NCBI GenBank assembly: GCA_027083135.1
Contig: JALWQH010000052.1
Location: forward strand, 24,448 to 88,447
Direction: 5' to 3'
DNA from: Desulfurococcales archaeon
Lineage (GTDB): Archaea > Thermoproteota > Thermoprotei_A > Sulfolobales > WAQK01
Length of the DNA: 64,000 bases
Part shown: positions 28,904 through 42,718 of the stretch, one piece after another
How positions within the stretch are numbered: position 1 is the stretch's first letter
Layout of the letters: each line of letters starts with the position of its first letter
Program-made: the position numbers and the translations under genes
Notes under the pieces: model-generated
Seen by the model: the letters and a program-made list of their open reading frames with translations, nothing else
Databases searched by the model: none
Told to the model about the DNA's origin: nothing

Positions 28904-30340
28904 TCATATTGTGTTATTTTTCTTGGTGTAGTAGTATGCTGCTGCTGGTATTATGATGATTATTATGATGGTTGCAGCCCAGAGGCCAGCAGTAGAAGCA
29001 CCCCTCTCAACAGTCTTGGTCAATGTGCTTATGGAAAGCGTACTGGATACAATGGTTCTTGTCACCGTGGTTGTCTTGCTAGTTGTTGTGCCTGTACTGC
29101 TAGTGGTGGTTTTGCTGTGAGTACTAGTGGTCGGCGTGCTCGTCGTGGTTTTCATGGTAGTTGTGGTGGTCTTGCTGGTTGTGGTGGTTCTACTTGTCGC
29201 AGTACTCGTAGTCGTAGTAGTCGTGGATGCAGTGCTACTAGTAGTCGTAGTAGAAGTAGTGGAAGAAGCAGCAGTACTCGTAGTCGTTGTAGTGGTGGTG
29301 CTTGGCGTTATTTTGCCTATGAGGGTATCGTATATGGCCTTCCATATTAGGGGATCTCCTCCGTCAAGCCTCCATACAGCCACTCCGGGGAGCTTGTATT
29401 TTCTAGCTATGATGGCCTTGTAGACCACTGTTTCATGGTCGTTGTAATATATGGCTGTAGTACCTAGATCCAGGTATTTTTCCTTGTATGTCTGGTCGAA
29501 TACGGGTTTCAATCCTCTCTCTTTGATTAGGTTGGAAATGTAGTCGTACATATGCCAGTCAACAAGTTTACCGTCTTTCGTCCACTCCCATCCATAGGAT
29601 GGTATGCCCATCAGGAGCTTGTTTCTGGGAATATAGTTGAGGGCATATTTTACGCAGGCTTCAACCCAGCTTGGAGGTGCTACGGGTCTGGGGACTCCTT
29701 TAAGCTCATAGTAGTCGTAGGTCATTATCATAATGTAGTCTACCCCTGATTGTCCAAGAGCCTTGTAATCGTATGCTCCTAGGAAGCTGTTAGTCGAATA
29801 TGCCATGCGTTTTGCAGCCACATCTACTGTGAGCTTGAGGCCTGCCTTATGGAATACGTAGGCTAGTCTGCTTAGAAACTGGGCGAAAGTCTGAGCGTCT
29901 TCAAGCATAGGGGCTTCGAAATCTATGTTAAAGCCATTATACCCGTAGGTCTGTGCTATTTTTATCAGGGTGCTTGAGAAGTTATGGAAGGCTGCTGGAT
30001 TAGTGAAAAGCTGATGCATTCTTTCAGGCACGTTGCTTACAACCATTGGGTGAATCTTTATCCCATACTGGGAGGCCAGGTTGATCAGGTTTAGATCATT
30101 AGCACCGCGATCAGTGAATACCCCTATGCTTCCATTATCCTTGAGGACGAACCAATCGGGCGATATCCAGCTTATGTACTCATGGTTCTCCTTGATCACA
30201 TCATATACCTGGGGAGTAACCTTGTAGATCCATGCTACTACTAGGGGCTTAGTCGAGCTGCTGGCTCCATAGGTTAGGTGTATTCCCGGTGCTAGGGAGA
30301 TCATTATAAGGACAGCCAGCATACACGCATACTTGAACAC
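28904..30340 (-). CDS. Surface-anchored glycoside hydrolase family 18 (chitinase / spore-cortex-lytic-like)
   Basis: Signal peptide, GYNGFNIDFE catalytic motif, IMTYD, LLMGIPSYG, GVAVWRL, Ser/Thr linker, C-terminal TM plus basic tail. Confidence 0.9.
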   Translation of the reverse strand: MFKYACMLAVLIMISLAPGIHLTYGASSSTKPLVVAWIYKVTPQVYDVIKENHEYISWISPDWFVLKDNGSIGVFTDRGANDLNLINLASQYGIKIHPMVVSNVPERMHQLFTNPAAFHNFSSTLIKIAQTYGYNGFNIDFEAPMLEDAQTFAQFLSRLAYVFHKAGLKLTVDVAAKRMAYSTNSFLGAYDYKALGQSGVDYIMIMTYDYYELKGVPRPVAPPSWVEACVKYALNYIPRNKLLMGIPSYGWEWTKDGKLVDWHMYDYISNLIKERGLKPVFDQTYKEKYLDLGTTAIYYNDHETVVYKAIIARKYKLPGVAVWRLDGGDPLIWKAIYDTLIGKITPSTTTTTTTSTAASSTTSTTTTSSTASTTTTTTSTATSRTTTTSKTTTTTMKTTTSTPTTSTHSKTTTSSTGTTTSKTTTVTRTIVSSTLSISTLTKTVERGASTAGLWAATIIIIIIIPAAAYYYTKKNNTI

Positions 30341-30481: not shown

Positions 30482-32398
30482 GTGTGTGGGTTCTTGATTA
30501 AGGATAGGATAAAAATAATCGGTATGAGTGTAATACTAGCAGTAATGCTGTTGTCCTTGATCTCCCCCTCCATAGCTCATGCACAGCAGAAAGAGACAGT
30601 ATTGAAGGTTGGTATTCCTGGAGAGATCGATAACTTCAACCCGCTCATAGGGCTCTTCGGCGCAGCAGGCTATATTAGAGGCCTGCTGTTCGATACACTG
30701 CTCATAATGCCATCTAATAGGAGCTACTGCCCCTGGCTTGCTCAGAGTTGGACGGTTAACGAGAAGAACTTGACAATAACCTTTAAGCTCCGCCCCAACC
30801 TGAAATGGCATGACGGCCAGCCGCTGACAGCTAAGGATGTTGAGTTCACATTCAACCTAATCATAAACTCCAAGTACACGCCTAAGCTGGATAGATGGAA
30901 CCTCCACAACTACATAGCCTATGTTAAGGCTATTGACAACCGTACTGTGGTCTTCAAGCTGAAGGAGCCGTTTGCTCCTATCCTATGGTACATAGGCCTG
31001 TTAATACCTGTGCTACCCGAACATATTTGGAGCAAAGTTGATCCAACAACGTTTAAGAACACGGAGCATCCTATTGGAAGCGGTCCATTCAAGTTTGTGA
31101 AGTATACTCCAGGCGTATCAGTAGAGCTTGAGGCGTTCGATGACTATTTTGCAGGCCGCCCCAAGATAGACAAGTTGATCATAGGACTATATAAGAGCAC
31201 TGACAGCGTCCTGCTAGACCTTCAGGCAGGAGCCATAGACGCTATTGCAGGCATGACTGTGGCCCCGGAGCTTGTGCCAACACTACTCAAGGATCCCCAT
31301 ATAAGAGTAGTGATAAGGCCTGACCTAGGATACATAAGGTTCATGGGCTTCAACCTAGACAAATATCCCTTCAATGTGAGGGAGTTCAGGGAAGCCGTGG
31401 CATACGCCATAGATAAAGACTATATTGTTAAGACAGTTATGCTAGGATATGCTGACCCTGCAGCAGATGGCTGGGTTCAGCCGATCCAGGGCATATGGTA
31501 TAATAAGGCCATAGGCTATAGGAAGCAGAATCTCACTAAGGCTATGCAGATACTTGACTCCATAGGCTTCATAGATAGGGATGGAGACGGTATAAGGGAG
31601 ACGCCTAATGGCACTAAGCTAGAGTTCACGCTGTTGACGCTGGCAGGCAGAACAGAGTTCGAGAGGACTGCTGAGATAATTGCAAACTGGCTTAACCAGA
31701 TAGGAATAAAGGTGAAGGTTGAGGCCTATAGCCTTGGCACAGTAGACCATAAGGAGGGTGTAGGAGACTTCGACATGGGACTCATGGGTGTGGGAGGCCT
31801 TACAGCTGAGATAGATTACTATCTATACCCAAGGTTCCACAGCAGCGGCGCACCACCCATAGGCAAGTATGCGCCTAGAAACTGGTTTAGATATAGGAAC
31901 CCTGAGGTAGACAAGCTGCTAGAGGAGCAGAGAACAGAGCTTAACCTCACTAAGAGGATACAGATAGTCTACAAGATACAGGAGATCATAGCCCACGACA
32001 TACCAGTAGTGACACTATATGTGAAGAGATATGTAACCGCCTATAGGACTGACCGCTTCGTCAACTGGAATGAGAAGGAAGGACCTGCAAGCAAGCTATC
32101 ACTACTGCAGGTTAAGCCTAGGGGGCCAGCAACAGTAACAACAACTAAGACAGCCACCTCTGTGACAACCTCAGTTGTCACAACAAGCAAGGTCTACACA
32201 ACTGTTGTAAAGACAACGATAAGCGGCACACCTACAACCGTTGTTAAGACCATGACCTCTGCCACAACCTATACGACCACAGTGCCAGTAACCTACACTA
32301 AGAAGACGGGGATAAGCACCGCTGCGGCCATAGGAATCGCAATAATAATAGCAATAATTGCCGCAGCAATAGCATACTGGGCTGCTAAACGGGGATAA
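30482..32398 (+). CDS. Opp/Dpp-family ABC substrate-binding protein, C-terminally anchored
   Basis: LRPNLKWHDGQPLTAKDV, IGSGPF, FREAVAYAIDK, DRDGDGIRE; Thr-rich linker plus TM. Confidence 0.93.
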   Translation: MCGFLIKDRIKIIGMSVILAVMLLSLISPSIAHAQQKETVLKVGIPGEIDNFNPLIGLFGAAGYIRGLLFDTLLIMPSNRSYCPWLAQSWTVNEKNLTITFKLRPNLKWHDGQPLTAKDVEFTFNLIINSKYTPKLDRWNLHNYIAYVKAIDNRTVVFKLKEPFAPILWYIGLLIPVLPEHIWSKVDPTTFKNTEHPIGSGPFKFVKYTPGVSVELEAFDDYFAGRPKIDKLIIGLYKSTDSVLLDLQAGAIDAIAGMTVAPELVPTLLKDPHIRVVIRPDLGYIRFMGFNLDKYPFNVREFREAVAYAIDKDYIVKTVMLGYADPAADGWVQPIQGIWYNKAIGYRKQNLTKAMQILDSIGFIDRDGDGIRETPNGTKLEFTLLTLAGRTEFERTAEIIANWLNQIGIKVKVEAYSLGTVDHKEGVGDFDMGLMGVGGLTAEIDYYLYPRFHSSGAPPIGKYAPRNWFRYRNPEVDKLLEEQRTELNLTKRIQIVYKIQEIIAHDIPVVTLYVKRYVTAYRTDRFVNWNEKEGPASKLSLLQVKPRGPATVTTTKTATSVTTSVVTTSKVYTTVVKTTISGTPTTVVKTMTSATTYTTTVPVTYTKKTGISTAAAIGIAIIIAIIAAAIAYWAAKRG

Positions 32399-32409: not shown

Positions 32410-33399
32410 GTGAGGGAGACTCCCAAAATGCCATCCTCTTTTTTGGTACGGAGGTCAATTAGACTCATCATAACATTCTTCATTATAGTTATCCTAGACT
32501 TCCTTCTCCCCAGGCTTATGCCTGGAAACCCTGTGGCAATACTCGTCAAGCAGAGCGGGCTGCCGGACTCAGCTATCCAGCAGCTCACAAAGCAGTTTGA
32601 ACTGGATAAACCTTTGTATGATCAGTTCATAGCATACATAGTTAACCTCTTCAAAGGTAACTGGGGGTATAGTTACAGGTATTATCCTACACCGGTGAAG
32701 GACCTGATATTTCAGAGGCTTCCATGGACGCTCCTGCTGCTCGGCACGTCCTCGATAACCGTCTTTCTCTTCGGCGTTTTTCAAGGCTTTCTGGCAGGAT
32801 GGAGACATGGAACCAAGACTGATTCAACCATAACGCTCGTAGCGGTCCTAGTATACGCTATACCCTACTACTGGCTTGCACTAGTGCTTCAATACTTCTT
32901 CGGATACAAGCTTAAATGGCTGCCTACATCTCAGGCCTTAACGTTTGGAGCAGTATATCATAATTTCCTAGACTATGCCTTAGATGTGGCTCGGCACCTT
33001 GTGCTGCCTGTAACAGCTATAACGCTCACAGCATATGCTGCATACACGCTTGTTACGAGAAACACCATGATAGATGTGCTTGGAGAGGACTTCATAGTCA
33101 CAGCTAAGGCTAAGGGTCTTCCTGAGAGGAAAGTTATGTGGCATGCTGCTAGGAATGCTATGCTACCCCCTGTCACTATGCTGGCAATAAGGCTTGGACA
33201 CATGGTTGGGGGAGCAGTATTCACGGAGACAGTGTTCTCGTATCCCGGAGTAGGGCTACTCATCTATGAATCAATAATCTACAAAGACTACCCGGTGCTT
33301 AACGCTGCATTCTTCATTCTAGCTATAACCGTGATCATTGCCAACTTCATAGCAGACCTGCTATATGCATGGCTTGACCCCAGGGTGAGATATAGATGA
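32410..33399 (+). CDS. Opp/Dpp ABC permease (OppB-like)
   Basis: LMPGNP, EDFIVTAKAKGL, ETVFSYPGVG, DPRVR. Confidence 0.93.
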   Translation: MRETPKMPSSFLVRRSIRLIITFFIIVILDFLLPRLMPGNPVAILVKQSGLPDSAIQQLTKQFELDKPLYDQFIAYIVNLFKGNWGYSYRYYPTPVKDLIFQRLPWTLLLLGTSSITVFLFGVFQGFLAGWRHGTKTDSTITLVAVLVYAIPYYWLALVLQYFFGYKLKWLPTSQALTFGAVYHNFLDYALDVARHLVLPVTAITLTAYAAYTLVTRNTMIDVLGEDFIVTAKAKGLPERKVMWHAARNAMLPPVTMLAIRLGHMVGGAVFTETVFSYPGVGLLIYESIIYKDYPVLNAAFFILAITVIIANFIADLLYAWLDPRVRYR

Positions 33400-34292
33400 C
33401 CAGGATCACGCTGAGCGAGGAGAGAAAGGAGAGCATTACCAAGCTTCTACATGGACTATACTATATCTTCATAAAGGATAAAAAGGGCTTACTAGGCTTC
33501 ACCATAATTATGGGCTTCGCCATAATAGCTATCTTTGCTCCCCAGCTAGCCCCCTATAATCCGCGTGCAATGATTGGAAGGCCGTTTGAGCCTCCCAGCC
33601 ACAAGCATCTCCTAGGAACCAATGATGTTGGGCAGGATATTCTCAGCGAAGTCATATATGGGACAAGGGTGAGCTTCTATGTGGGGCTGACAGCCCCTAC
33701 GATATCCACTATAATAGGCCTTCTCCTAGGTCTGGCTGCAGGGTACATGGGTGGCAAGATCGATGAGCTTATCTCAGGCTCCATAGACGTGATGTTAGCC
33801 ATACCTGGCTTACCATTAATCATAATACTTGCAGCGTATCTGGGGCAGAGCCTCAACAACATTATACTAGTATTAGCGATAACAGGCTGGGTAGGTGTGG
33901 CTAGAGTCGTACGATCTCAGGTTCTAAGCATAAAGGAAAGACTATATGTTGAGGCTGCAAGAGCGGTAGGTGCAAGTGACTCTAGGATCATGCTTAACCA
34001 CATTCTTCCCAACGTAATGCCCCTTATGGCTGCCTATGTGATCCTAGGGGCAACCAGCGCTATACTGACTGAGGCTGGGCTAAGCTTTCTAGGACTAGGC
34101 GATCCCACGGCTATTAGCTGGGGCCAGATACTTCACCATGCGCAAGTGAAGCATGCTCTTCAGCTTGGATTATGGTTGTGGGCCATAGTGCCAGGCTTAA
34201 TGATAGCTCTAATGGGAATGGGCTTCACGCTGCTAGGCATGTCGATGGAGGAGTACCTTAACCCCAGGCTTAGAAGCTACCAGGCAGCCTAG
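33396..34292 (+). CDS. Opp/Dpp ABC permease (OppC-like)
   Basis: HLLGTNDVGQD, YVEAARAVGAS, HILPN, LSFLGLG, NPRLR. Confidence 0.93.
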   Translation: MTRITLSEERKESITKLLHGLYYIFIKDKKGLLGFTIIMGFAIIAIFAPQLAPYNPRAMIGRPFEPPSHKHLLGTNDVGQDILSEVIYGTRVSFYVGLTAPTISTIIGLLLGLAAGYMGGKIDELISGSIDVMLAIPGLPLIIILAAYLGQSLNNIILVLAITGWVGVARVVRSQVLSIKERLYVEAARAVGASDSRIMLNHILPNVMPLMAAYVILGATSAILTEAGLSFLGLGDPTAISWGQILHHAQVKHALQLGLWLWAIVPGLMIALMGMGFTLLGMSMEEYLNPRLRSYQAA

Positions 34293-34294
34293 CC

Positions 34295-35833
34295 CTAATC
34301 ATTAAAACAAGTATGTCCTGAAGGAAGTTTTTCGCTTAAAGTTATGGGTAGCCTGCCTTTAGGCCTGCATCTCCCTTTAATCAGGTTGAAGAGCGCTTTC
34401 AGGGAACAATACCTGTAGCTGTAAGCTGCTACTACAACCTTATATCCGCTTAGATCTACTTGTCTAAGCCACACAGGATTTCCAAGCGATACCAGCATCC
34501 ATCCTCTGGGCGGAAGCCTTGATAAATCCCCGGCCGAATAGAATAACACTATCATTCTCTCAGGCTCTAGTTTCCCTGCACCTAGCCTGACGCACTCAGC
34601 CTTTATTCCCGTCTCACGAGCGATGCCGCACGCCGATATAACTCCTCCGGCTCCTGCTACGGGTGAAGGGGCGTTAAGCCTAGGAGGATAGGTTATCAGA
34701 GGCTTTGAGGGAGGATTACCGAGTTTGCTGCATCCTCTAATTACCGTGAGAGCCCTGCAGGCCTGCTCAACGCATTTTTCAACATGTTTCTTGGAGCCTA
34801 CTATTTCTTCAGGCCTGCTTGAAGGCTTTATTCTTAGCCGCTTGGCCAGCATCTCCCTCCTAGTAATGCTGGCCTTCAGCCTATCCTCATCTACGTCTCC
34901 TCTCAGAACCAGTTTAAGCATTCTGTCATAGGCTCTCTTCTGAACCCTGAGCGTATGGGAGAACATTATTATGTCTAGGCCTGCCTTTAATGCCAGGTCT
35001 ACTATCTGCTCTGGAGTATACCTGGATGCCACGGCCTTCATCTCCATGCAGTCTGATACTATTAGGCCGTTAAACCCCATGTCTCTAACCATGTTTACAG
35101 CCCTGGCCGAGAGACTTGCAGGAACCTTTGAGTCAATCGCATCCACGAGTATGTGTCCAAGCATGACTGCATCAACTCCTCTCCGCACAGCGTATCTGAA
35201 GGGGGCTACATGCTCCTCCAGCTCTAATGCACTTAGCCTCACCCTAGGTAGATCATAGTGTGAATCAATGATCGTTGATCCATGGCCGGGGAAATGCTTG
35301 GCAGTAGCACCTACGCCTGAGGAGTGCAGCCCTTCTATGAAGGCTGCCCCCAGCTTTGATACGAGTTCAGGGTTCTCTCCAAAGCTTCTTTCGCTCACAA
35401 CGCTGCTTTCAGGCTCCTTAAGCACATCGAGGACTGGTGCCAGATCTAAGTTTATACCCATTGCTGCAAGCTCTCTTCCAATGATCCCTCCAGCCTGCCT
35501 CGCCTCGCTCTCCAAGCCTATAGCCCCTAAAGCCATGTTTCCAGGCATAGGTGTAGTGTACCTAGGCATTCTGAGAACCATTCCACCCTCCTGGTCAACC
35601 ATTATGAGGGCTCCGCTAAGCCCCCGGCTCCTCACGTGCTCATCAATGCTTCTAGTGAGAATTGAGACCTGCCGAGGATCTCGGAGATTCCTATTGAATA
35701 AGACTATGTTAGGTATATTCCACTCGGCAATGACCCGGCGTGCATGATCGTCTTTCAGGCTTACTCCATCGAAGCCGAAGGCAAGCATACTACCCGCAAT
35801 ATCCTCGGGTTCAAAAATACCCGTGGACCTCAC
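34295..35833 (-). CDS. nagZ: GH3 beta-N-acetylhexosaminidase (NagZ type)
   Basis: VDQEGG.V.R, APVLD, RSFG, NagZ signature KHFPGHG...DSH, nucleophile SDCMEM. Confidence 0.9.
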   Translation of the reverse strand: MRSTGIFEPEDIAGSMLAFGFDGVSLKDDHARRVIAEWNIPNIVLFNRNLRDPRQVSILTRSIDEHVRSRGLSGALIMVDQEGGMVLRMPRYTTPMPGNMALGAIGLESEARQAGGIIGRELAAMGINLDLAPVLDVLKEPESSVVSERSFGENPELVSKLGAAFIEGLHSSGVGATAKHFPGHGSTIIDSHYDLPRVRLSALELEEHVAPFRYAVRRGVDAVMLGHILVDAIDSKVPASLSARAVNMVRDMGFNGLIVSDCMEMKAVASRYTPEQIVDLALKAGLDIIMFSHTLRVQKRAYDRMLKLVLRGDVDEDRLKASITRREMLAKRLRIKPSSRPEEIVGSKKHVEKCVEQACRALTVIRGCSKLGNPPSKPLITYPPRLNAPSPVAGAGGVISACGIARETGIKAECVRLGAGKLEPERMIVLFYSAGDLSRLPPRGWMLVSLGNPVWLRQVDLSGYKVVVAAYSYRYCSLKALFNLIKGRCRPKGRLPITLSEKLPSGHTCFND

Positions 35834-35837
35834 CTCT

Positions 35838-35859
35838 CATGCACAGTATACTGTGCATG
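35838..35859. promoter_or_regulatory. Perfect 22-bp palindrome, candidate operator
   Basis: CATGCACAGTATACTGTGCATG in the divergent nagZ/regulator intergenic region. Confidence 0.55.
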
Positions 35860-35915
35860 CTATTTTGCTTTTAATTTTATATGCCATGCTACATTAGGTT
35901 TTTACATGGGTTACA

Positions 35916-36887
35916 ATGCTTGTAGAAACACGTAAGGTTATATCGGCTGGCAGGCGCTCCAGAGCCGTAACGCTCCCTAAGAAATGGGTTGTTGAGCACG
36001 GGGTGAAGCCCGGAGACCCTATGGAAATAGTGCTAGAGGAGGACGGCTCTCTTAGAATACGGCCGTTGAAGACCTCTCCAGCCACACCCATGGTAAGCGA
36101 GGTATTCGTAGAGAAGCCTGGCAGCAATGTCAACGATATAGTGTTCACGCTGATAGGATACTATGTTAATGGGTATAATGTGGTGGTGATGCCTCCATCC
36201 CCGCAGGTATATGAGGCTCTCTCCAGGCTTGAAGACATGCTTATAGGAGTATTATACATTGATCTAGGAGAGCAGGTCAAGGTTAAATTCATAGTCTCGG
36301 AGGGTAAGATAGGATCGTACGAGATAGCATCAAGGCTTGCAGGCCTGCTTTCAAGGCTCTCCAGCAAATATATGGATTCCCTGGAAACAGGTAGCATGAT
36401 GGACCTCAATGATGTTCTCCGCATTGAAAGCGAGGTTGACAGGCTATATTATTTAGGACTAAGAGTACTTAACACCGAGCTTACTAGAAGCATAGCTGAA
36501 TGGCATATCAAGGAGTATGTCAGGCTCTCATCGATGAGAGTAGCGCTTAAAGTCATGGAGGATATATCTGATGCTTTTGACCGTAGCACTAGGACAATAC
36601 TTAGACTAGGCTTAGGCATAGTGAGTGAAGAATACCTTAAGATACTGAGAAGCGTCTCTAAAATAGTGGTTGATGCTGCCCAATCCTTCCTGGAGCTAGA
36701 TAGACTCAAGGCTAGCAGAATACTTAAACTCAGAATAGATGTGAAGAAAGATCTAGTCGAATTCAAGAAAAAAGCATCTGTTGAAACTCAGATGCTTATA
36801 TCAGAGCTTGAAATAATGCTGGCTCTAGCAGCAGATCTAGCTGAAATAGCCATAATGGATTCCATAACAAGCAGAAAGCATGCATAA
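35916..36887 (+). CDS. AbrB-PhoU type regulator (COG0704-like)
   Basis: N-terminal RKV..GRRSRAVTLPKKW AbrB domain; ESEVDRLY PhoU-like helical domain. Confidence 0.85.
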   Translation: MLVETRKVISAGRRSRAVTLPKKWVVEHGVKPGDPMEIVLEEDGSLRIRPLKTSPATPMVSEVFVEKPGSNVNDIVFTLIGYYVNGYNVVVMPPSPQVYEALSRLEDMLIGVLYIDLGEQVKVKFIVSEGKIGSYEIASRLAGLLSRLSSKYMDSLETGSMMDLNDVLRIESEVDRLYYLGLRVLNTELTRSIAEWHIKEYVRLSSMRVALKVMEDISDAFDRSTRTILRLGLGIVSEEYLKILRSVSKIVVDAAQSFLELDRLKASRILKLRIDVKKDLVEFKKKASVETQMLISELEIMLALAADLAEIAIMDSITSRKHA

Positions 36888-37097
36888 GGATAAAGGGAGC
36901 CTACCTACAAGTACACTAGCATACAGACCTTTAGCCTCCTCTTATGCGAGTACTATTCAATTCAACAAAACATGGATCCTCCGATTACAACTAGGTATAA
37001 AATGCAGAGATGCCGGTGGGAGTAGCCTGCAGGATGCAGGAAGCGGAAAATAGTATAATAAACACATGCATATCATGTTTCAGGGAAGGGTGGAATC

Positions 37098-38894
37098 ATG
37101 GACGCCCGTCTAGCCGCATCTGTGGCAATAATAGTGTTAATAATAGTAGCTTCTGCTTCAGCCATATATCTCCGGTCTCGTAGAACGGCATCCACGACAA
37201 CTTCAAGCAGTCCGAGTAGCCTGCCTCCTTCCACAATTACCTCAACTACAAGTACATCTATGGCTGCGCGTACAAGTACGTATAGTACGAGAACCACTAC
37301 TAGCACTACTATCACGACAACCACTATATCATCATCGAGCACCACTACAACTACTCATACTACTCCGAGTCCAACTACTACCATGACAACTAAAACACCA
37401 ACATTCACCACAACCAGCACCACCACGATGACCAGTACTACAACCACTATCTCGAAACCCAGCCTCTCCCAATACCTTGCTAGGCAGATCAACGGGCTGC
37501 TTGAACTCTACCCTGAACTCAATCTTAACGCAACAGGCATACTTATCACCACTCTGAACGGAACAGTATTGTACTCGCTTCACCCCCATGAACCTCTCAT
37601 ACCAGCATCAAACATGAAGCTCCTAACAGCAGCGGCGGCTTTAAAGTACCTTGGGCCAGACTATAAGTTCAAGACGGTCTTCATAGTCACAGGGAAAATC
37701 GAGAACTCCACGCTTCACGGAGACATAATAGTTAGAGGCACAGGGGATCCCACCCTTGTTAGCGGCGATTGGGCTGATGAATGGTCACATAAGGTTGCCT
37801 ACCTCTACGATACTGAGCACCTCTTAGATGATGCTGTGAAGCCCTTAGAGAAGCTAGGAATAAAGCGTATCGATGGAAACATAATAATAGATGACTACTA
37901 CCTTGACCACCAGTGGGTTAACCCTACCTGGGAGAAGGAGGATCTCTCACACTGGTATGCTGCTCAGATAGGGGCCCTTGGAATAAACAGGAATATCGAG
38001 CTGCTTGAACTATACCCGCAGCCTTCAGGCAAGGTCAAAATAAAAGTCGTGCCTGACGTCGGCTACATCAACGTGACCTTCGCTGGAAGAGTAGTGAAGA
38101 GCAGCAGCGATGTAAAACAGTGGGCTGTAGAGGTCAGAGAGCCTGGGACAAATAATGTTAAAATAGTCGGAGATCTTCCCATGGATATAGATGTCTACTA
38201 CCTATCTGTAACGGTTAATGATCCAGGTATGTATTTTGGAGCAGTATTCAAGAAGGTCCTAGAGGATCATGGGATAAAGGTTATGGGAGGAGTCAAGCGG
38301 GCTAATACTACTGGGTGGAAGAATCAGACGATCACTGTGATAACTCTTCAATCAAAGCCTCTTAAAGATATTATAAGATTAATGCTTAAGAAGAGCCTTA
38401 ATCTCTACGCAGACCACCTCTTCAAAGTTCTAGGAAAAGTAGTGGTAGGCGAGGGCTCCTGGAAGGGAGGCTCTAAGGCTGTGGAAAAAATGCTGAGGGA
38501 TCTGAGCATAATGGAGGATGGAGTTAAAATAGTTGATGGTTCAGGGCTCTCCAGGGAGAACAGGGTTACTCCAAGCCTCCTAGTAAATTTGCTGCGCATA
38601 TATGCAGGTAATAAGATCCTCTATAATTCCCTGCCCATAGCAGGCTGGGACGGCACGCTTAAGCATAGGATGCTGGACACCCCTGCTGAGGGTAACTTAA
38701 GGGCTAAGACAGGAACCCTCACAGGAGTATCAGCTCTTAGCGGCTATGTTAAAACCAGGGATAATGTAACACTAGTATTCTCAATGCTGTTCAACGGCTT
38801 CCATGCAACAGCGCACAAGGTTAAATACGAAATAGAGGACTATATAGGGGCTCTTCTAGCAGACATAAATACATCTAAGTACAAGGTGCCCTAA
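37098..38894 (+). CDS. dacB: D-Ala-D-Ala carboxypeptidase/endopeptidase (PBP4, peptidase S13), membrane-anchored via Ser/Thr stalk
   Basis: PASNMK (SxxK), GTGDP, KKSLN (SxN), DGSGLSREN, AKTGT (KTG), LSGY; N-terminal TM and long Thr/Ser linker. Confidence 0.92.
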   Translation: MDARLAASVAIIVLIIVASASAIYLRSRRTASTTTSSSPSSLPPSTITSTTSTSMAARTSTYSTRTTTSTTITTTTISSSSTTTTTHTTPSPTTTMTTKTPTFTTTSTTTMTSTTTTISKPSLSQYLARQINGLLELYPELNLNATGILITTLNGTVLYSLHPHEPLIPASNMKLLTAAAALKYLGPDYKFKTVFIVTGKIENSTLHGDIIVRGTGDPTLVSGDWADEWSHKVAYLYDTEHLLDDAVKPLEKLGIKRIDGNIIIDDYYLDHQWVNPTWEKEDLSHWYAAQIGALGINRNIELLELYPQPSGKVKIKVVPDVGYINVTFAGRVVKSSSDVKQWAVEVREPGTNNVKIVGDLPMDIDVYYLSVTVNDPGMYFGAVFKKVLEDHGIKVMGGVKRANTTGWKNQTITVITLQSKPLKDIIRLMLKKSLNLYADHLFKVLGKVVVGEGSWKGGSKAVEKMLRDLSIMEDGVKIVDGSGLSRENRVTPSLLVNLLRIYAGNKILYNSLPIAGWDGTLKHRMLDTPAEGNLRAKTGTLTGVSALSGYVKTRDNVTLVFSMLFNGFHATAHKVKYEIEDYIGALLADINTSKYKVP

Positions 38895-39072
38895 AGAATA
38901 CTAGGAACATGTGATGCCATGTAATGCATTGTTCTTTTAAGGCTCCATATAATTTCAAGAGGAGCCCTACCCTGAAGAAGCTGGAGGAGATTTGCCTTCA
39001 CACCCATAATGTTGTTAGGAATCCATATATTCTAGAGGATGGATTAATATTCCCCTAATATTAGGGCTAAGC

Positions 39073-39351
39073 TTGGGGAGAGGCATGGTGCGCGTCAGAC
39101 TAGTTGCAACGCTTCGCTCTGAGGCAGGGATAGATGAGATCGAGATAAATGGTTCGGGAATGCTCATGGACATACTTGCTGAGGCTAGGAGAAAGATCCC
39201 TGTGTTGAGGAGGGTTATAGGGGAGGAGGGGGAGCCTAAGCCCACGGCACTTATACTTGTAGATGACGTTGACTATAGGCTGCTTGGGAAAAAATTAAGG
39301 ATTGGCAGGGATAGTGTGATAACAATAATACCTGTCATTCATGGTGGTTAG
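39073..39351 (+). CDS. Ubiquitin-like sulfur carrier (Urm1/SAMP-like)
   Basis: Beta-grasp size, C-terminal IPVIHGG; start may be the ATG at 39085. Confidence 0.8.
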   Translation: MGRGMVRVRLVATLRSEAGIDEIEINGSGMLMDILAEARRKIPVLRRVIGEEGEPKPTALILVDDVDYRLLGKKLRIGRDSVITIIPVIHGG

Positions 39352-39353
39352 GA

Positions 39354-39953
39354 TTGCAGGAGGTTCCTAGCTTCCTTAACGTCAGCTGGGACGATATAGA
39401 TGAGCTCTCCCTAAGCCTGGCTGAACGCATAATCTCATCGGGATTCAAGCCTGACGCTATAGTAGGCATAATGCGTGGAGGCTGGATACCGGCTAGAATA
39501 CTAGCCGATCTCCTTGGAGTCGATATTCTTGACGCCATAGAGATAAAATTCTATAGAGGTATTGGTGAAACACGTGAGAAACCCGTAGTCACCAGGCCCC
39601 CCCTCTCAGATCTCAGGGATAAATCTGTCCTACTAGTAGATGATGTGTCTGATACTGGTAAGAGCCTGTCAGTAGCCGTGTCAGCATTAGTTCTTCTAGG
39701 GCCGGCGCGTATAAGAACAGCTACACTGTACATAAAGCCATGGAGTATGAGCGTGCCAGACTACTATGCCGCTAGCACTGAGTCATGGATTATTTTCCCA
39801 TGGGAGAAAGGAGAGATACTGGGAGAAATAGCCGAATATGCATCCAAGCTAGGCGAGGATCCCCTGGACTTCGCTGTGCATAGACTAGGCTTCCAGCGGG
39901 AACATGTTAAACGTATTTCCAGGGTCAGGGGGCTCGAGATCATTGATAATTAG
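39354..39953 (+). CDS. Purine phosphoribosyltransferase (type I PRTase)
   Basis: GIMRGG, LLVDDVSDTGKS PRPP loop, WIIFPWE. Confidence 0.9.
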   Translation: MQEVPSFLNVSWDDIDELSLSLAERIISSGFKPDAIVGIMRGGWIPARILADLLGVDILDAIEIKFYRGIGETREKPVVTRPPLSDLRDKSVLLVDDVSDTGKSLSVAVSALVLLGPARIRTATLYIKPWSMSVPDYYAASTESWIIFPWEKGEILGEIAEYASKLGEDPLDFAVHRLGFQREHVKRISRVRGLEIIDN

Positions 39954-40482
39954 GGCTGAGACCTCAGGCTGGAATGATCTCTGGGTTCTAGCAGTACTTA
40001 TACGCCTTCCACCCAGCAGGGCTGAGGAGCATGCCCTAAGAATAATTAAAATAGCGGATGATAGAGGACTGCCTTACACGCAGGTTGTCAGGCCTGAAGC
40101 ATTAGTCGGCCCCCTTCACGTCTCCATAGCTTCTGTAACGGCTTATAGAAGACATAGCGCTGGGAAAGGCATAGCCCGATCCCCGTCAATCGAGCTTCTA
40201 CTGAGACTTGCCGGAGAGAGGCAAGTATCCAGAGCTCTAGGAAAACTTGGTGTAAGGAGAGGTGCAGAGCAGGCCTGCCTCATATCGGTCTCACACTTTA
40301 GAGAAAAGATGCATAGCTTCCTAGAAGGCGAGCTAAAGAACATGTTGCTAGGTGAGTGCAGGTGGGGTGGGATCAAAGCAGCGGCTCTTTACGGCTTTAA
40401 CCCCGAATCCTGCATCAGCCCCGAGAAGAGATGCGCGGAAATACGCGCAGCATCCATGGCGGTGAGACCCGAAGTATCATGA
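39904..40482 (+). CDS. cgi121: KEOPS complex subunit Cgi121-like
   Basis: IARSPSIELLLRLAGERQVSRALGKLG motif; start uncertain. Confidence 0.7.
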   Translation: MLNVFPGSGGSRSLIIRAETSGWNDLWVLAVLIRLPPSRAEEHALRIIKIADDRGLPYTQVVRPEALVGPLHVSIASVTAYRRHSAGKGIARSPSIELLLRLAGERQVSRALGKLGVRRGAEQACLISVSHFREKMHSFLEGELKNMLLGECRWGGIKAAALYGFNPESCISPEKRCAEIRAASMAVRPEVS

Positions 40483-40555
40483 AGTTCTCAGCAATGCTTT
40501 AAGCCTGAGACTTTTCAGAGATATATCTGTGGATACACTGTTAGGGGGGTGCATC

Positions 40556-40648
40556 ATGTTCGAAGAGGAAGAGTGGTGGGAGGAAGAGGAAGAAGAAGAG
40601 GAATGGTGGGAAGAGGAGGAAGAGGAAGAAGAATGGGAGGAATTCTAG
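40556..40648 (+). CDS. 30-aa Glu/Trp microprotein MFEEEEWWEEEEEEEEWWEEEEEEEEWEEF
   Basis: ATG with GGGGGGTG RBS 4 nt upstream; Glu codons alternate GAA/GAG in frame; TAG stop. Confidence 0.7.
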   Translation: MFEEEEWWEEEEEEEEWWEEEEEEEEWEEF

Positions 40649-40713
40649 GCCTGAATAGTCAGCCTTATTCTTTAACAGCTTACCCTGCATATCATCCTAT
40701 GTAGATTTAAGGA

Positions 40714-40773
40714 GTGCTCAGATGATGCTGATCCTCATCCCCTAGGATCAGAGCCGTCACCACTCATCATAGC
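40714..40773 (-). ncRNA. Box C/D methylation guide sRNA
   Basis: Minus strand: C ATGATGA, 12-nt guide GTGGTGACGGCT, D' CTGA, C' GGGATGA, 13-nt guide GGATCAGCATCAT, D CTGA; canonical archaeal spacing. Confidence 0.85.
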
Positions 40774-40891: not shown

Positions 40892-42718
40892 ATGAGGCCT
40901 GGAGACAGCAGGGGGATAGAGATGAGGGTTGCGGCAATAGACTATGAGCTCTGCAAGCCCAGCAAGTGTGGATTAGAGTGCATAAGGTTTTGCCCTGTTA
41001 ATAGGATGGGGTCTAAGGCAATAGAGCTTAGCCCTAGTGTTGGAGGCAAACCTGTAATATATGAGGATACCTGTATAGGGTGCGGAATATGCGTTAAGAA
41101 ATGCCCCTTCAAAGCCATAAGCGTTGTAAACCTGCCCGAGGAGCTGGAGGAGGAGGCTGTACATAGATATGGTGTCAACGGCTTCAAGCTTTTCAGGCTT
41201 CCCACTCCTAGGAGGGGAAAGATCCTCGGCATCATAGGTAAGAATGGAACGGGGAAGACAACAGCTCTCCGCATACTAGCAGGAGAACTTAAGCCTAATC
41301 TTGGAAGAATAGGTGAAGAAGCATCATGGGATGATGTTCTAGAGCACTATAGGGGCACAGAGCTCTACGACTACTTCAAGCTGATAGTGAATGGGAGGAT
41401 GAGGGTAGCCCACAAGATACAGCATGTGGACAGGGTGGCCAGATACGTTAAGGGGAGTGTTAGAGAACTATTAGGGAGAGCTGATGAGAGAGGCCTGGCC
41501 TCAGAGCTGGCTGAGAAGCTTGGCTTAAAAGAGATCTGGGATAGGGATATAAGGAAGCTTAGCGGTGGTGAGCTGCAGAAGCTCCTCATAGCCGCGGTTG
41601 TGTCAAAGGATGCTGAGGCATACTTCTTCGATGAGCCTAGCAGCTACCTGGATGTTAGGGAGAGGATAAGAGTGGCCAAGATCATTTCAACAATGCTTCC
41701 CGCCAACAAATACATATTAGTTGTGGAGCATGATCTCGCAATACTTGACTATCTCTCTGACCTGATCTCAATAATCTACGGCGAACCAGGCGTTTATGGA
41801 ATAGTGTCAAGGCCGTATGGCTCAAGAGCAGGTATAAACCACTTCCTCACCGGCTACCTGCCTGCAGAGAACATGAGGATCAGGCCGACCCCCATAAGGT
41901 TCCATGTAAGAGCCTCTGCCCCTGCGAAAAGCTCTGCTCCCCAAACATACTTAGAGTGGAGCAGCATGGAGGTTAGGCTGGGCTCCTTCACCCTAAGCAT
42001 CGAAGGTGGGGAGGCTCTTAGAGGAGAGGTTGTTGGAATAGTGGGTCCTAACGGCATAGGCAAGACAACATTTATCCGCGTCCTGGCAGGCGAGGTGAAG
42101 CCCATTAAAGGTAGTGTAACATGTAGTGGACTCGAGATGAGCTATAAGCCACAATACGTTTCACCAGATATGTATGAGGGTAAAACAGTTGAGGAGGTTT
42201 TACGCGATGCTAACCCTAACTCCCTGGCAAGCGGCAGCTGGCTTTACACGGAGCTTATACGTAAGCTAGGTCTTCCAAGACTTCTAGAACGCGATGCATC
42301 AAGCCTCAGCGGCGGCGAGCTGCAGAAGCTGGCAGTGGCTGAAGCCTTAGCAAGGGAAGCCGACATATACTTGCTCGACGAACCCTCAGCCTACCTCGAC
42401 GTGGAGGAGAGGCTCACAGTTGCAAGAATTATAAGAAGGCTCACAGAGGCCCGCGGCATAACAGCCTTTGTAGTGGAACACGATGTATCTATACAGGACT
42501 TCATAGCCGACAGGCTAATGGTGTTCAGAGGGGAACCAGGAATACGGGGAGAGGCATCAAGACCTCTCAGCCTCAGGCAAGGCATGAACACGTTCCTCAA
42601 AGACCTAGCCGTAACCTTCAGAAGGGATCCCGAGACAGGCAGGCCCAGAATAAATAAGGAGGGAAGCCATCTCGACAGACTTCAGAAAAAGAAGGGAGAA
42701 TACTACTATGCCGTCTAA
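40892..42718 (+). CDS. ABCE1/RLI ribosome recycling ATPase
   Basis: Fe-S domain CKPSKC..CIRFCP and CIGCGICVKKCP, two NBDs with LSGGELQ; likely start at MRVAAID (40922). Confidence 0.97.
   Translation: MRPGDSRGIEMRVAAIDYELCKPSKCGLECIRFCPVNRMGSKAIELSPSVGGKPVIYEDTCIGCGICVKKCPFKAISVVNLPEELEEEAVHRYGVNGFKLFRLPTPRRGKILGIIGKNGTGKTTALRILAGELKPNLGRIGEEASWDDVLEHYRGTELYDYFKLIVNGRMRVAHKIQHVDRVARYVKGSVRELLGRADERGLASELAEKLGLKEIWDRDIRKLSGGELQKLLIAAVVSKDAEAYFFDEPSSYLDVRERIRVAKIISTMLPANKYILVVEHDLAILDYLSDLISIIYGEPGVYGIVSRPYGSRAGINHFLTGYLPAENMRIRPTPIRFHVRASAPAKSSAPQTYLEWSSMEVRLGSFTLSIEGGEALRGEVVGIVGPNGIGKTTFIRVLAGEVKPIKGSVTCSGLEMSYKPQYVSPDMYEGKTVEEVLRDANPNSLASGSWLYTELIRKLGLPRLLERDASSLSGGELQKLAVAEALAREADIYLLDEPSAYLDVEERLTVARIIRRLTEARGITAFVVEHDVSIQDFIADRLMVFRGEPGIRGEASRPLSLRQGMNTFLKDLAVTFRRDPETGRPRINKEGSHLDRLQKKKGEYYYAV

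Follow-up and report, generated by a model that had tools for sequence, protein, structure and literature searches.

A gene at 37098..38894 (+) in the DNA analyzed here (64,000 nucleotides from a Desulfurococcales archaeon; hereinafter the window) codes for a stalked protein, P0001, with a predicted S13/PBP4-type DD-peptidase activity. The best reading of this protein, which we consider fairly probable, is that of an outward-facing DD-endo/carboxypeptidase of a peptidoglycan-scavenging system, with both the locus and the genome carrying genes predicted to act in the catabolism of peptidoglycan fragments. The initial annotation had likewise proposed that the enzyme faces outward and acts on D-amino-acid peptides of non-self origin, and this stands as the best reading given the presence of such catabolic genes and the lack of Ddl and Mur ligase matches in the genome.

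P0001 (an open ORF of 598 aa) is a real and intact member of the S13/PBP4 family. It matches the Pfam family PF02113 (Peptidase_S13) over aa 128-576 with an E-value of 3.6e-106 (356 bits vs a cut-off of 22.8) and the NCBIfam model TIGR00666 (PBP4) with 315.2 bits vs 107.8, and scores below the cut-off of the E. coli-type equivalog NF008322 (232 vs 527). The same Pfam search (E <= 0.01) recovers no family besides PF02113 and, in particular, no wall-binding domain. Sequence matches in the PDB include PBP4a (1.2e-54) and E. coli PBP4 (6.9e-54). Upstream of the ORF, an A/T-rich TATA-like box (37047-37062, +) might constitute its own promoter and a GGGTGG (37088-37093, +), 4 nt 5′ of the ATG, a putative ribosome-binding region, both as read by eye. 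None of the RNA runs contains this locus.

The three-domain PBP4 catalytic module at aa 121-598 (37458..38891, +) was delineated using alignments, invariant columns and an AlphaFold model. Residue-level alignment with the PBP4 of E. coli and the PBP4a of B. subtilis identifies the SxxK motif as S171-N-M-K174, the SxN motif as S433-L-N435 (aligning with E. coli S306-D-N308) and the KTG motif as K537-T-G539, all three being invariant across 9 aligned clade members. An alternative candidate for the SxN motif, SGLSREN at 482-488, was rejected, as the alignment places that motif at S433-L-N435. Thus, the two family matches and the three aligned motifs confirm the earlier assignment as a DacB/S13 penicillin-binding protein with a complete serine catalytic set. 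We further examined the subsite that receives the free meso-DAP end, using the positions of E. coli D155, F160, R361 and Q422, B. subtilis D145 and S416, and PBP4a T394, a small Thr; the roles of these residues are described in PMC5054556 and PMC3276566. By alignment, P0001 retains this subsite as D282/Y287/R486/T542 plus T520, corresponding to E. coli D155/F160/R361/Q422 and B. subtilis D145/S416/T394. The model of the module (pLDDT 96.6, pTM 0.94) displays the three nested domains, with II inserted in I and III inserted in II, and Foldseek returns TMq values of 0.87 to PBP4a (1w5d), 0.85 to R39 and 0.80 to E. coli PBP4. With PBP4a, 484 columns of the model are aligned with an rmsd of 2.2, and the sequence alignment spans chain residues 7-460 of 462.

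The S13 gene is the last in a locus coding for a GH18, a family-5 solute-binding protein (SBP5), two permeases, a NagZ-like GH3 and a regulator. The GH18 (28904..30340, −; PF00704, 96.6 bits; catalytic motif NIDFE) is a predicted surface-tethered enzyme of the YdhD/YaaH/SleL type, whose members are spore-cortex peptidoglycan glucosaminidases. Its best PDB matches are 5jh8, 4wiw, YdhD (3cz8), YaaH (4s3k) and SleL (4s3j), among which YdhD (5.7e-23), YaaH (7.4e-20) and SleL (3.9e-18) rank third to sixth with the “probable chitinase” 5jh8 ahead of them. The SBP5 (30482..32398, +; PF00496, 306 bits) has a signal peptide and a C-terminal stalk and anchor, and its closest relatives among solved structures are binders of chito-oligosaccharides, peptides or mannosides. 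As a point against peptidoglycan scavenging, the GH18 and SBP could serve chitin or the chitobiose of N-glycans. The OppB/OppC-type ABC permease genes (32410-33399 and 33396-34292, both +; PF00528, PF19300, PF12911) have no adjoining ABC ATPase gene in the window. The GH3 (34295..35833, −; 512 aa; PF00933, 242 bits) has no N-terminal hydrophobic segment and is predicted to be a cytoplasmic NagZ/YbbD-like β-N-acetylglucosaminidase: its best PDB matches are GH3 β-N-acetylglucosaminidases, including B. subtilis YbbD/NagZ, and its best family is the β-N-acetylhexosaminidase model NF003740 with 189.2 bits, under the cut-off of 207. Finally, the AbrB/MazE-domain regulator (35916..36887, +; 323 aa; PF04014 at 1.1e-11) has similar proteins of 308-324 aa adjoining GH18-amidase genes of two related genomes (G217 and G225; see below), with the window version being 27% identical to the type found in the GH18 loci of relatives (tblastn E 2e-12).

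The possibility that P0001 is a contaminant bacterial gene or the product of a chimeric assembly is vanishingly small, and we regard it as refuted for practical purposes. What could be held in its favor is compositional: the S13 gene has a GC fraction of 0.464, at about the 4th percentile among the long ORFs of the genome, and the bins at 36-40 kb have a slightly higher AT content than the window does on average. However, this low GC is common to the S13, GH18, SBP and regulator genes, and the codon-usage distance of the S13 gene to the genome mean lies at the 10th percentile, i.e., is typical of the host. A contig from run X1 (possibly the source sample) covers 34167-41000 with 0 differences, and a 4,111-nt contig from a second study (X2) carries the regulator end, S13, a small ORF and a PRTase gene in the same order at ~93.5% identity. 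The best labelled bacterial matches to P0001 are at most 39% identical, and the contigs of its stalked relatives, one of them recorded as archaeal, include genes for a FEN1-type nuclease and an arginyl-tRNA synthetase among the neighbors. Together with the flanking archaeal genes of the window, namely ABCE1/RLI (40892..42718), TFIIB, eRF1 and family-B DNA polymerase, which the initial annotation had also pointed to, the conserved order in the second study and the typical codon usage bear out its claim of a native gene fitted to the host envelope.

Beyond the locus, the window's genome (G000; 99.59% complete) has no matches to Ddl (PF07478) or Mur ligase (PF08245). As the organism would thus make no D-Ala-D-Ala peptides of its own, the substrate of P0001 is likely to be bacterial peptidoglycan. 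The genome does carry AnmK (C43; NF007148 with 452.4 bits vs 387, PF03702 with 314.7 bits), adjoining genes for a PBP4B-like PF00144 protein, a SIS protein and NagA (TIGR00221, 307.6 bits vs 225.65). The substrate of AnmK, 1,6-anhydro-MurNAc, is a product of bacterial wall turnover and not of the enzyme set described here. Further homologues include an S66 LD-carboxypeptidase (LdcA-like; 128 bits on the N-domain, with the C-domain also present), LysA (305.2 bits vs 297.9, split over two contig ends), an L-Ala-D/L-Glu-epimerase-like protein (227 bits, below the cut-off of 500) and an alanine racemase family protein (100 bits). None of the S66, LysA and epimerase-like genes adjoins the S13 locus. 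Other components of a canonical pathway are missing from the window's genome, which counts against scavenging: the best match to the MurQ equivalog NF003915 has 35.8 bits vs 168, PF01510, the MurNAc-L-Ala amidase family, has 0 matches, and there is no permease-adjacent ATPase. The GH3 scoring below the NagZ cut-off is a further point on that side. The SIS_2 protein next to AnmK belongs to another subfamily than MurQ (NF002805, 280 bits).

An S13 domain scoring above the cut-off occurs in just 2 genomes out of the 325 for the order, 3 out of 351 for the class and 4 out of 401 for a sample of the phylum, and is thus too rare for a core envelope function. In the phylogeny suggested as a check by the initial annotation, P0001 groups with other stalked S13 proteins of archaea in a small clade, which is the sister group of an unstalked Thermoproteota clade (bootstrap 97/SH-aLRT 99); the tree does not resolve a bacterial donor. 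The members of the unstalked clade have no signal peptide and are apparently cytoplasmic. Their genes (L039/L041, L003) adjoin those for MurQ (315 bits vs 168), a NagK-like kinase, an L-Ala-D/L-Glu-epimerase-like protein and LysA (453 bits).

Domain fusions among the relatives join the GH18 domain either to S13 or to a further wall-directed activity. A 941-aa protein, P0008, combines an anchor, a stalk, a GH18 and an S13 domain, with its GH18 half being 46% identical to the window GH18 (E 4e-89). In four genomes of the order (G217, G222, G225 and G018), a GH18 is fused to Amidase_2 (E about 1e-29), a MurNAc-L-Ala amidase, plus a GHL10 domain. The GH18 domains of the first three are close to that of the window (42-45% identity, E <= 7e-75), and that of G018 is more distant (28%, E 3e-24). 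By Pfam, an SBP5 lies beside the fusion in G217, G225 and G018, the G225 version being an orthologue 65% identical to the window SBP5; in G222 it lies ~4 kb upstream with four unscanned ORFs in between. G217 additionally has two permeases and an ATPase, the latter recognized by eye via its Walker motifs. Each of the 10 genomes in which the GH18 has a strong orthologue (E <= 1e-67) also carries AnmK, which is present in 23 of 325 overall; these counts are not independent since the genomes represent about five lineages of kin. In G049, the genes for GH18, a GH84 NAGidase and AnmK lie side by side.

Against the scavenging reading, other S13 genes of the stalked clade are not beside wall-related genes. 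Those of L002/L024/L028 directly follow a MoxR-DUF58-DUF4129-DUF4350 cluster, those of L026/L025 lie among DUF1464, DUF1152, dehydrogenase and radical-SAM genes, and in G217 the S13 and GH18-amidase genes are on separate contigs. A MoxR-type cluster of the same kind is also found near the unstalked L003. These neighborhoods could be taken to indicate a target other than murein, such as an endogenous envelope component or another D-amino-acid polymer or peptide antibiotic, or else transpeptidase work; the entry title of the PBP4-type enzyme R39 indeed names it a DD-transpeptidase-carboxypeptidase. We consider this improbable, as the mDAP subsite is conserved in P0001, no Ddl or Mur ligase is found in its genome, the gene is much too rare to have an envelope role, and the S13 domain shares a protein or a locus with a peptidoglycan-type GH18, which is in turn fused to a MurNAc amidase.

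The proposed outward orientation of P0001 draws in part on its N-terminal region. The N-terminal TM anchor claimed earlier is recovered as a hydrophobic segment at aa 5-23 (37110..37166, +), which is the best 19-aa Kyte-Doolittle window with a mean of 2.69, as compared to 1.12 for the next best beyond aa 40. We predict that it is a signal-anchor, with a cleaved signal peptide being less likely. It is followed by a Thr/Ser/Pro-rich stalk at aa 30-120 (37185..37457, +), in which 46 T, 21 S and 6 P account for 80% of the 91 residues, as compared to 16% of the remaining protein, and which is probably glycosylated. The relatives P0004, P0005, P0007 and P0009 share this layout, and a related strain shows 75 nt in place of 60 nt in the stalk region plus 3 nt missing, as expected of a length-tolerant linker. 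The likeness to the stalks of the neighboring proteins, asserted in the initial annotation, holds in part: both the GH18 and SBP have Thr/Ser-rich stalks, but these are C-terminal, ahead of a C-terminal hydrophobic anchor, and a scan for 40-aa stretches with at least 60% T+S recovered the GH18 and S13 proteins alone, the SBP5 stalk being T/V/K-rich as read by eye.

The flanks of the hydrophobic segment are at odds with an outward-facing S13 domain. The C-flank contains R26, R28 and R29 and the N-flank merely the four residues M-D-A-R; hence, the positive-inside rule would favor an N-out/C-in arrangement. The stalk and S13 domain would then lie on the inner face of the membrane and remove D-Ala from imported muropeptides, much as the unstalked sister clade, without signal peptides and in a MurQ/epimerase/LysA cluster, presumably does in the cytosol. 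Several observations make such cytoplasm-facing trimming quite improbable. Anchor-adjacent Thr/Ser stalks are also seen on the GH18 and SBP5, both of which start with an N-terminal hydrophobic signal-like segment, and in P0008 and the GH18-amidase fusions, which share the anchor-stalk layout, the N-flank is clearly positive. Moreover, N-X-S/T sequons in the catalytic part of P0001 reach 2.87 times the compositional expectation, as compared to a median observed/expected ratio of 0.58 among 148 other domain rows (bacterial where labelled), with the enrichment being uneven in its clade (0.66 to 2.89). We also know of no cytoplasmic role for a 90-residue poly-Thr linker. In a separate departure from the tethered arrangement, an A-S-A|I sequence could, by our own reading, be a signal-peptidase site yielding a free secreted enzyme.

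An extracellular enzyme specific to a polymer made only by bacteria could also be an antibacterial weapon that, alone or with the GH18, lyses or weakens live competitors, with any nutrient gain being secondary. The patchy spread of the gene (2/325) resembles that of the bacteria-killing archaeal peptidoglycan hydrolases described by Strock et al. 2025 (PMC12352652), and Bdellovibrio bacteriovorus exports S13 DacB homologues, Bd3459 and Bd0816 (3v39, 5cer), onto the peptidoglycan of its prey (PMC3276566). However, the latter are soluble and injected into the prey, whereas P0001 is predicted to be tethered to its producer via the anchor and stalk. They are also described as having no counterparts of the E. 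coli PBP4 pocket residues D155, F160 and R361 (PMC3276566), whereas P0001 has retained both domain III and the free-mDAP pocket seen in the housekeeping PBP4s, and they are distant from it in both structure (TMq 0.49-0.51 vs 0.87 to PBP4a) and sequence (E about 1e-5). Further, P0001 has S13 as its sole Pfam domain, with none for wall-binding; its locus codes for an importer and a cytoplasmic NagZ-like enzyme, the genome for AnmK, NagA and an LdcA-like protein, and the sister clade is apparently cytoplasmic and placed within a catabolic cluster. The antibacterial role that the initial annotation had floated is thus disfavored, and we judge it unlikely. More speculatively, the stalked S13 and GH18 domains, and in relatives the GH18-amidase-GHL10 proteins, might form a surface wall-stripping apparatus for contact-dependent grazing by hyperthermophilic Thermoproteota on live bacteria, with the ABC importer and AnmK/NagA/LdcA set consuming the wall thus released. 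While we give this a low probability, it would provide a first mechanistic example of archaeal predation on bacteria by means of a dedicated surface multi-enzyme system.

Returning to scavenging, we propose the following scheme. P0001, a class C1 low-molecular-mass PBP, would be displayed on the outer face of this archaeon of a Desulfurococcales-type order, held to the membrane by its N-terminal anchor and ~90-residue, probably glycosylated stalk. Its substrate would be environmental bacterial peptidoglycan, most likely soluble DAP-type muropeptides and wall debris from neighboring bacteria. As suggested by the motifs and fold, Ser171 would be acylated by the D-Ala-D-Ala or D-Ala-mDAP bond, and water would then free the terminal D-Ala or split cross-linked dimers to monomers. 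The locus, fusions and homology suggest that outside the cell the tethered GH18 would cut the glycan, with the SBP5/ABC system importing the pieces. Inside, the NagZ-like GH3 is predicted to take off GlcNAc, and AnmK and NagA to route the amino sugars to central metabolism, while the S66 homologue, the L-Ala-D/L-Glu-epimerase-like enzyme, LysA and the alanine racemase homologue might recover the amino acids of the stem peptide. The purpose would be nutritional, providing scavenged carbon, nitrogen and amino acids.

The closest kin of P0001 are the class C1 PBPs of MEROPS S13, namely B. subtilis PBP4a/DacC (1w5d), Actinomadura R39 (1w79) and the PBP4/DacB of E. coli and H. influenzae (2ex2, 3a3d). 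It shares with them the three nested domains, the SxxK/SxN/KTG motifs and the mDAP subsite, despite being just 28-32% identical. In contrast to them, it has an anchor and 91-residue Thr/Ser stalk in place of the bacterial signal peptide, it has 16 residues inserted at about aa 229-244 as compared to PBP4a, and it comes from an archaeon without Ddl or Mur ligase matches, so its substrate would be foreign rather than self. Among archaeal enzymes, the Pab87 “CubicO” peptidase of Pyrococcus abyssi is likewise a serine peptidase of the penicillin-recognizing fold from a vent organism with DD-carboxypeptidase activity on muropeptides, from which it takes off D-Ala at 90 °C, and Delfosse et al. 2009 suggested that at vents it handles bacterial wall debris as a food source (PMC2651629). 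However, Pab87 is a euryarchaeal S12 and not an S13 enzyme, with a lipocalin domain and a self-compartmentalizing octamer enclosing a central chamber, and is thus presumably intracellular; its stated context comprises an aminotransferase, a D-aminoacylase and a dipeptide ABC transporter, with no mention there of GH18, AnmK or an amidase (PMC2651629). The modular hydrolases of Strock et al. 2025 (PLoS Biol) are, like P0001, archaeal, horizontally acquired and patchy, and cleave bacterial peptidoglycan extracellularly, but their role is killing, whereas the context of P0001 points to feeding. They were defined by the presence of at least one catalytic plus at least one cell-wall-binding Pfam domain (PMC12352652); P0001, without a wall-binding domain, would therefore fall outside that count, and none of the terms S13, PF02113, carboxypeptidase, GH18 and Thermoprote occurs in the main text, the S10 Table domain list apart. 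A wall-binding-domain requirement thus makes surveys miss genes like P0001.

Peptidoglycan is a very large bacterial pool of carbon and nitrogen that archaea do not make, and the prior evidence for its use by them consists of one presumably cytoplasmic Pyrococcus S12 peptidase (the 2009 proposal) and secreted modular weapon hydrolases (2025). Our findings suggest that hyperthermophilic Thermoproteota have a more complete feeding system, comprising the tethered S13, SleL-like GH18, GH18-amidase fusions, importer and salvage enzymes including AnmK. If confirmed, this would show that bacterial walls are recycled across domains at hydrothermal vents, explain why murein-free archaea keep D-amino-acid and MurNAc enzymes, and supply muropeptide chemistry with thermostable enzymes of the PBP4, GH18 and amidase types. 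Compared with the bacterial peptidoglycan recycling set (NagZ, AnmK, MurQ, NagA, LdcA, L-Ala-D/L-Glu epimerase and Opp/MppA), the archaeon has homologues of AnmK, NagA, LdcA and LysA, a NagZ-like GH3, an epimerase-like protein and an Opp-type importer, along with a GH18 that has the Bacillus cortex hydrolases SleL/YaaH/YdhD among its best solved relatives. It differs in having no MurQ equivalog or amidase in the window's genome and in the predicted tethering of its extracellular enzymes by Thr/Ser stalks. As the host is without murein, the system would represent the catabolism of a foreign wall, rather than recycling as in bacteria.

The open frame at 37098..38894 (+) encodes a 598-aa protein in which Peptidase_S13 (PF02113) is the sole Pfam family (E 3.6e-106, 356 bits, aa 128–576) and which passes TIGR00666, the NCBIfam PBP4 equivalog, with 315 bits against a cut-off of 107.8. 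Among solved structures, its sequence is closest to that of B. subtilis PBP4a/DacC (1.2e-54), then to E. coli PBP4 (6.9e-54) and Actinomadura R39, the alignment with PBP4a spanning chain residues 7–460 of 462. The three PBP motifs, S171-N-M-K174, S433-L-N435 (aligned with E. coli S306-D-N308) and K537-T-G539, are invariant across nine aligned members of the clade. An AlphaFold model of aa 120–598 from an input alignment of 40 rows (pLDDT 96.6, pTM 0.94) superposes on PBP4a with a TMq of 0.87 and rmsd of 2.2, on R39 with 0.85 and on E. coli PBP4 with 0.80, as against just 0.49–0.51 for the Bdellovibrio predatory endopeptidases. Membership in the S13/PBP4 family is supported by every sequence and structure test. 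D282, Y287, R486 and T542 align with E. coli PBP4 D155, F160, R361 and Q422, and D282 and T542 also with B. subtilis D145 and S416; PMC5054556 and PMC3276566 describe a pocket of this type as taking the free end of meso-diaminopimelate. T520 aligns with T394 of PBP4a, which the same sources describe as a small residue tied to endopeptidase competence. A substrate other than murein is quite improbable.

The N-terminal region comprises a hydrophobic segment (aa 5–23, mean hydropathy 2.69) and a stalk (aa 30–120) with 46 T, 21 S and 6 P per 91 residues. The initial annotation had described a complete serine PBP catalytic set behind a membrane anchor and Thr/Ser stalk, and the profiles, motifs, model and composition bear this out. 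Only M-D-A-R precedes the hydrophobic segment, while Arg26, Arg28 and Arg29 follow it. We posit that the segment would act as a signal-anchor, albeit of uncertain orientation, with the stalk placing the enzyme within the space below the S-layer or farther out; the opposite topology, with the enzyme facing the cytoplasm, seems very improbable. The catalytic part carries 8 sequons, 2.87 times expectation (median of 0.58 among 148 other domain rows), on which grounds the stalk is probably glycosylated. An A-S-A stretch followed by I is a possible cleavage site, which could set the enzyme free.

The contig that contains the window is 107.6 kb long and belongs to a 1.75-Mb genome of 99.6% completeness; the window also carries ABCE1, TFIIB, eRF1 and a family-B DNA polymerase. 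In sequencing run X1, possibly that of the source sample itself, a single 10,747-nt contig covers 34167–41000 with zero differences. A 4,111-nt contig from a separate study (run X2) conserves the order of the regulator gene end, the S13 gene, a small downstream ORF and a PRTase gene; it differs from the window at 100 positions over 37359–38895 (~93.5% identity), with replaced stretches confined to two intergenic regions and the stalk, where 60 nt give way to 75 nt. In a set of 714 ORFs of at least 300 aa, the percentiles of which are rough because overlapping spurious frames were not removed, the S13 gene has codon usage typical of the genome (RSCU distance at the 10th percentile) and a low GC of 0.464 (~4th percentile), similar to that of the neighboring GH18, SBP and regulator genes. 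The archaeal flanks, the identical X1 contig, the conserved order in X2 and the typical codon usage uphold the earlier claim that the gene is no bacterial contaminant and speak against a chimera, and an artefactual origin is hardly conceivable. In G001, a genome of the same family, synteny is limited to the PRTase and ABCE1 genes adjoining S13. A search of sequencing runs found no RNA runs matching 34000–41000, and run X4 aligned with almost none of the region.

A word-indexed search recovered a tight group of homologs (P0002–P0010) with 56–97% identity, every one of them of metagenome or MAG origin, the next matches being at most 39% identical. The anchor-plus-stalk layout is common to the full-length P0004, P0005, P0007 and P0009. 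One locus of this group (L002), the record of which is titled Desulfurococcales archaeon, is the same DNA as contig C2 of the archaeal genome G217. A second archaeal group (P0037, P0038, P0040 and the loci L003 and L039/L041), with one record titled Thermoprotei archaeon, consists of proteins of 453–459 aa in which the S13 domain begins at the very start, with neither signal nor anchor. Trees were computed from 78 and later 40 of 165 extracted domain rows, with all archaeal and named bacterial rows retained and the remainder sampled at one in three. In the quick tree (LG+G4, 78 rows) each archaeal group has a support of 100 and their sister relationship 99; in the careful tree (LG+C20+F+G4, 40 rows by 475 columns) the values are 100/100 for each and 97/99. 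The phylogeny proposed for finding the donor lineage did not reveal one, as the 40-row tree has no well-supported bacterial sister of the archaeal group (31/80). One row (L029) shifted position between the trees, a long-branch effect that we do not interpret. S13 domains above the cut-off occur in 0/40 genomes of the nearest relatives, 2/325 of the order, 3/351 of the class and 4/401 of the phylum sample, the window's genome included. The most parsimonious account is a single ancient transfer into Thermoproteota, followed by gain of the anchor and stalk in one branch and then patchy spread. Separately, Bacillus, Brevibacillus and related Bacillota (P0011–P0036) code for ~960-aa proteins with two complete tandem S13 domains, an old duplication because the two domains fall in separate clades.

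Upstream of the S13 gene are a GH18 protein (28904..30340, −) with a signal peptide and a C-terminal Thr/Ser stalk and anchor, an SBP5 binding protein (30482..32398, +) with a C-terminal stalk and anchor of the same kind, two Opp-type permeases (32410..34292, +), a cytoplasmic GH3 (34295..35833, −) and an AbrB/MazE-domain regulator (35916..36887, +); next to the permeases there are no ABC ATPase genes. Among solved structures, the GH18 best matches 5jh8 and 4wiw, and next B. subtilis YdhD and YaaH and B. cereus SleL; these latter three, entered in the PDB as sporulation, germination or cortex-lytic proteins, are glucosaminidases acting on spore-cortex peptidoglycan. The GH3 has β-N-acetylglucosaminidases as its best relatives, B. 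subtilis YbbD/NagZ among them, and scores 189 bits, below the NagZ cut-off of 207. The relatives of the SBP bind chito-oligosaccharides, peptides or mannosides, and therefore do not decide its ligand. Taken by their own sequences, the GH18, SBP and GH3 may also fit a chitin or N-glycan role.

Several other genes of the window deserve mention. Directly 3′ of S13, a small ORF (39073–39351, +, 92 aa) with a Gly-Gly end, retained in the X2 strain, looks by eye like a ThiS/MoaD-type ubiquitin-like protein but has no Pfam match at E ≤ 0.001. The 344-aa product of 42809–43843 (+), which belongs to no Pfam family and bears a signal-like segment at its N-terminus and a hydrophobic anchor at its C-terminus, is predicted to be another surface protein. 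The flanks contain two tandem S9 prolyl-oligopeptidase/acylaminoacyl-peptidase genes (44704–48551, −), an M24 PepQ-like dipeptidase (27242–28321, +) and an Amidohydro_3 protein (23592–25175, +), which may take part in peptide breakdown; an S9 peptidase also adjoins the GH18 in the archaeal genome G251. The window also has the polymerase gene, which is split by an intein (9965–13516, +; Intein_splicing, aa 589–963), an ORF with a TumE toxin domain (25567–25968, −; PF20126, E 1.4e-15) and neighboring B12-binding radical-SAM and radical-SAM/SPASM genes (52042–54998, −), a pairing that suggests a peptide-maturation or cofactor pathway.

The relatives of the GH18 offer a guide to its role. P0008 (941 aa) combines an anchor, a stalk, a GH18 and an S13 domain on one chain, its GH18 part being 46% identical to that of the window (E 4e-89). 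Across the order's 325 genomes, a search with the GH18 domain recovered strong orthologs (E ≤ 1e-67) in 9 besides the window's own. In G217 (L119:7835-10564), G225 (L120:7685-10444) and G222 (L121:9137-11806), and with a more distant GH18 (28%, E 3e-24) in G018 (L127:8487-11219), the GH18 is fused to an Amidase_2 domain (E ~1e-29), an N-acetylmuramoyl-L-alanine amidase, and a GHL10 domain. These proteins of 889–919 aa, with anchor and stalk, are predicted to be large archaeal surface proteins. The fusion gene of G217 neighbors an SBP5 and two permeases confirmed by Pfam and an ATPase recognized by Walker motifs only; an SBP5 also lies near the fusion in the other three loci, by Pfam in G225 and G018, in a scan that excluded the intervening ORFs and those of G222. 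GNAT, ROK-kinase and regulator genes occur in some of the four loci; the regulator that adjoins the fusion in G217 and in G225 is of the same PF04014 type as that of the window. Elsewhere, the GH18 adjoins a GH84 N-acetylglucosaminidase and AnmK (G049) or an orthologous SBP (G202). AnmK is present in 23/325 genomes of the order, including 10/10 with a strong GH18, although these represent about five lineages rather than ten independent events. The fusions to S13 and amidase, together with the AnmK link, argue for a role in peptidoglycan rather than chitin or N-glycan metabolism.

The surroundings of S13 genes differ between the two archaeal clades. In the sister clade (L039/L041), S13 sits between an L-Ala-D/L-Glu-epimerase-like gene and LysA, with MurQ (315 vs 168 bits) and a NagK-like kinase close by and homocitrate-synthase and isocitrate/isopropylmalate-dehydrogenase-family genes upstream; in L003, an Orn/DAP-decarboxylase is near S13. 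Lysine synthesis by the aminoadipate route is usual in Thermoproteota, and if this route is used, a DAP decarboxylase beside S13 would be sensible only for DAP from bacterial walls. The stalked S13 genes of L026/L025, among DUF1464, DUF1152 and other genes, and of L002/L024/L028, following a MoxR-DUF58-DUF4129-DUF4350 cluster, have surroundings unrelated to the wall, and in G217 the S13 and GH18-amidase genes are unlinked. In one lineage (L002:4128-9684, L024:4203-9774) this MoxR (AAA_3) cluster immediately precedes the stalked S13, and in L003 (81-6498) it also lies within 4–10 kb of the unstalked S13.

The window's genome encodes AnmK (452 bits vs a cut-off of 387) in a cluster (G000:C43:52921-57200; L129:9916-14209) with a PBP4B-like PF00144 protein of the β-lactamase fold, a SIS-family protein and NagA (308 vs 226), with GlmS upstream. 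A profile search of this genome found neither the MurQ equivalog nor Amidase_2. The SIS_2 protein beside AnmK belongs to the NF002805 family, not MurQ, and may stand in for it; the ortholog of the G202-type SIS protein was rejected as MurQ, being a 6-phospho-3-hexuloisomerase (TIGR03127). On contig C29 (L141:1-1905), an S66 LD-carboxypeptidase homolog adjoins a γ-glutamyltranspeptidase gene, and the pair could break down the γ-D-Glu-mDAP part of stem peptides. The genome also has LysA (305 bits vs 298), an alanine racemase family protein and an L-Ala-D/L-Glu-epimerase-like enolase (227 bits, under its cut-off); no Ddl or Mur ligase was found in it. The MR_MLE homolog on contig C7 was rejected as a wall-locus gene, its surroundings being redox genes.

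We propose that the S13 protein is a surface-displayed DD-peptidase within a peptidoglycan-scavenging system. In bacterial muropeptides, Ser171 would attack the D-Ala-D-Ala and D-Ala-mDAP bonds, removing terminal D-Ala and splitting cross-linked dimers into monomers of a size that the binding protein and permeases could take up, while the GH18 would shorten glycan strands. In the cytoplasm, the GH3 might take off GlcNAc, AnmK and NagA process the sugars, and the S66 protein, epimerase-like enzyme, LysA and racemase recover the amino acids. Growing bacteria shed anhydro-muropeptides, and the use of AnmK suggests that these are a main food. P. aeruginosa PBP4 acts on anhydro muropeptide forms (PMC5054556). 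The initial annotation considered the enzyme possibly antibacterial: a weapon against bacteria would suit the scattered occurrence and recent findings on archaeal hydrolases (PMC12352652), but it agrees poorly with the apparent tethering, with the absence of any wall-binding domain, with an architecture still of the housekeeping kind and with the catabolic genes that accompany it, and we regard it as unlikely.

Databases already automatically label some proteins of the S13 group D-Ala-D-Ala carboxypeptidases; a full-text literature search outside subscription journals found no publication dealing with archaeal S13/PBP4 enzymes, AnmK in archaea or fusions of GH18 to an amidase. New here are the archaeal S13 clade with the anchor-and-stalk layout, its predicted cytoplasmic sister clade within muropeptide-catabolic clusters and, within a single archaeal order, a wider predicted array of tethered enzymes (GH18, GH18-S13 and GH18-amidase) together with AnmK. 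Feeding of vent archaea on bacterial wall peptides was already proposed for the S12 peptidase Pab87 (PMC2651629), and archaeal peptidoglycan hydrolases were demonstrated as weapons in 2025 (PMC12352652). The survey in the latter counted only proteins with a wall-binding domain, and S13, carboxypeptidases and GH18 go unmentioned in its main text, supplementary tables S2 and S10 excluded. The S13 protein of the window is a true member of the S13/PBP4 family, and its novelty lies in its setting.
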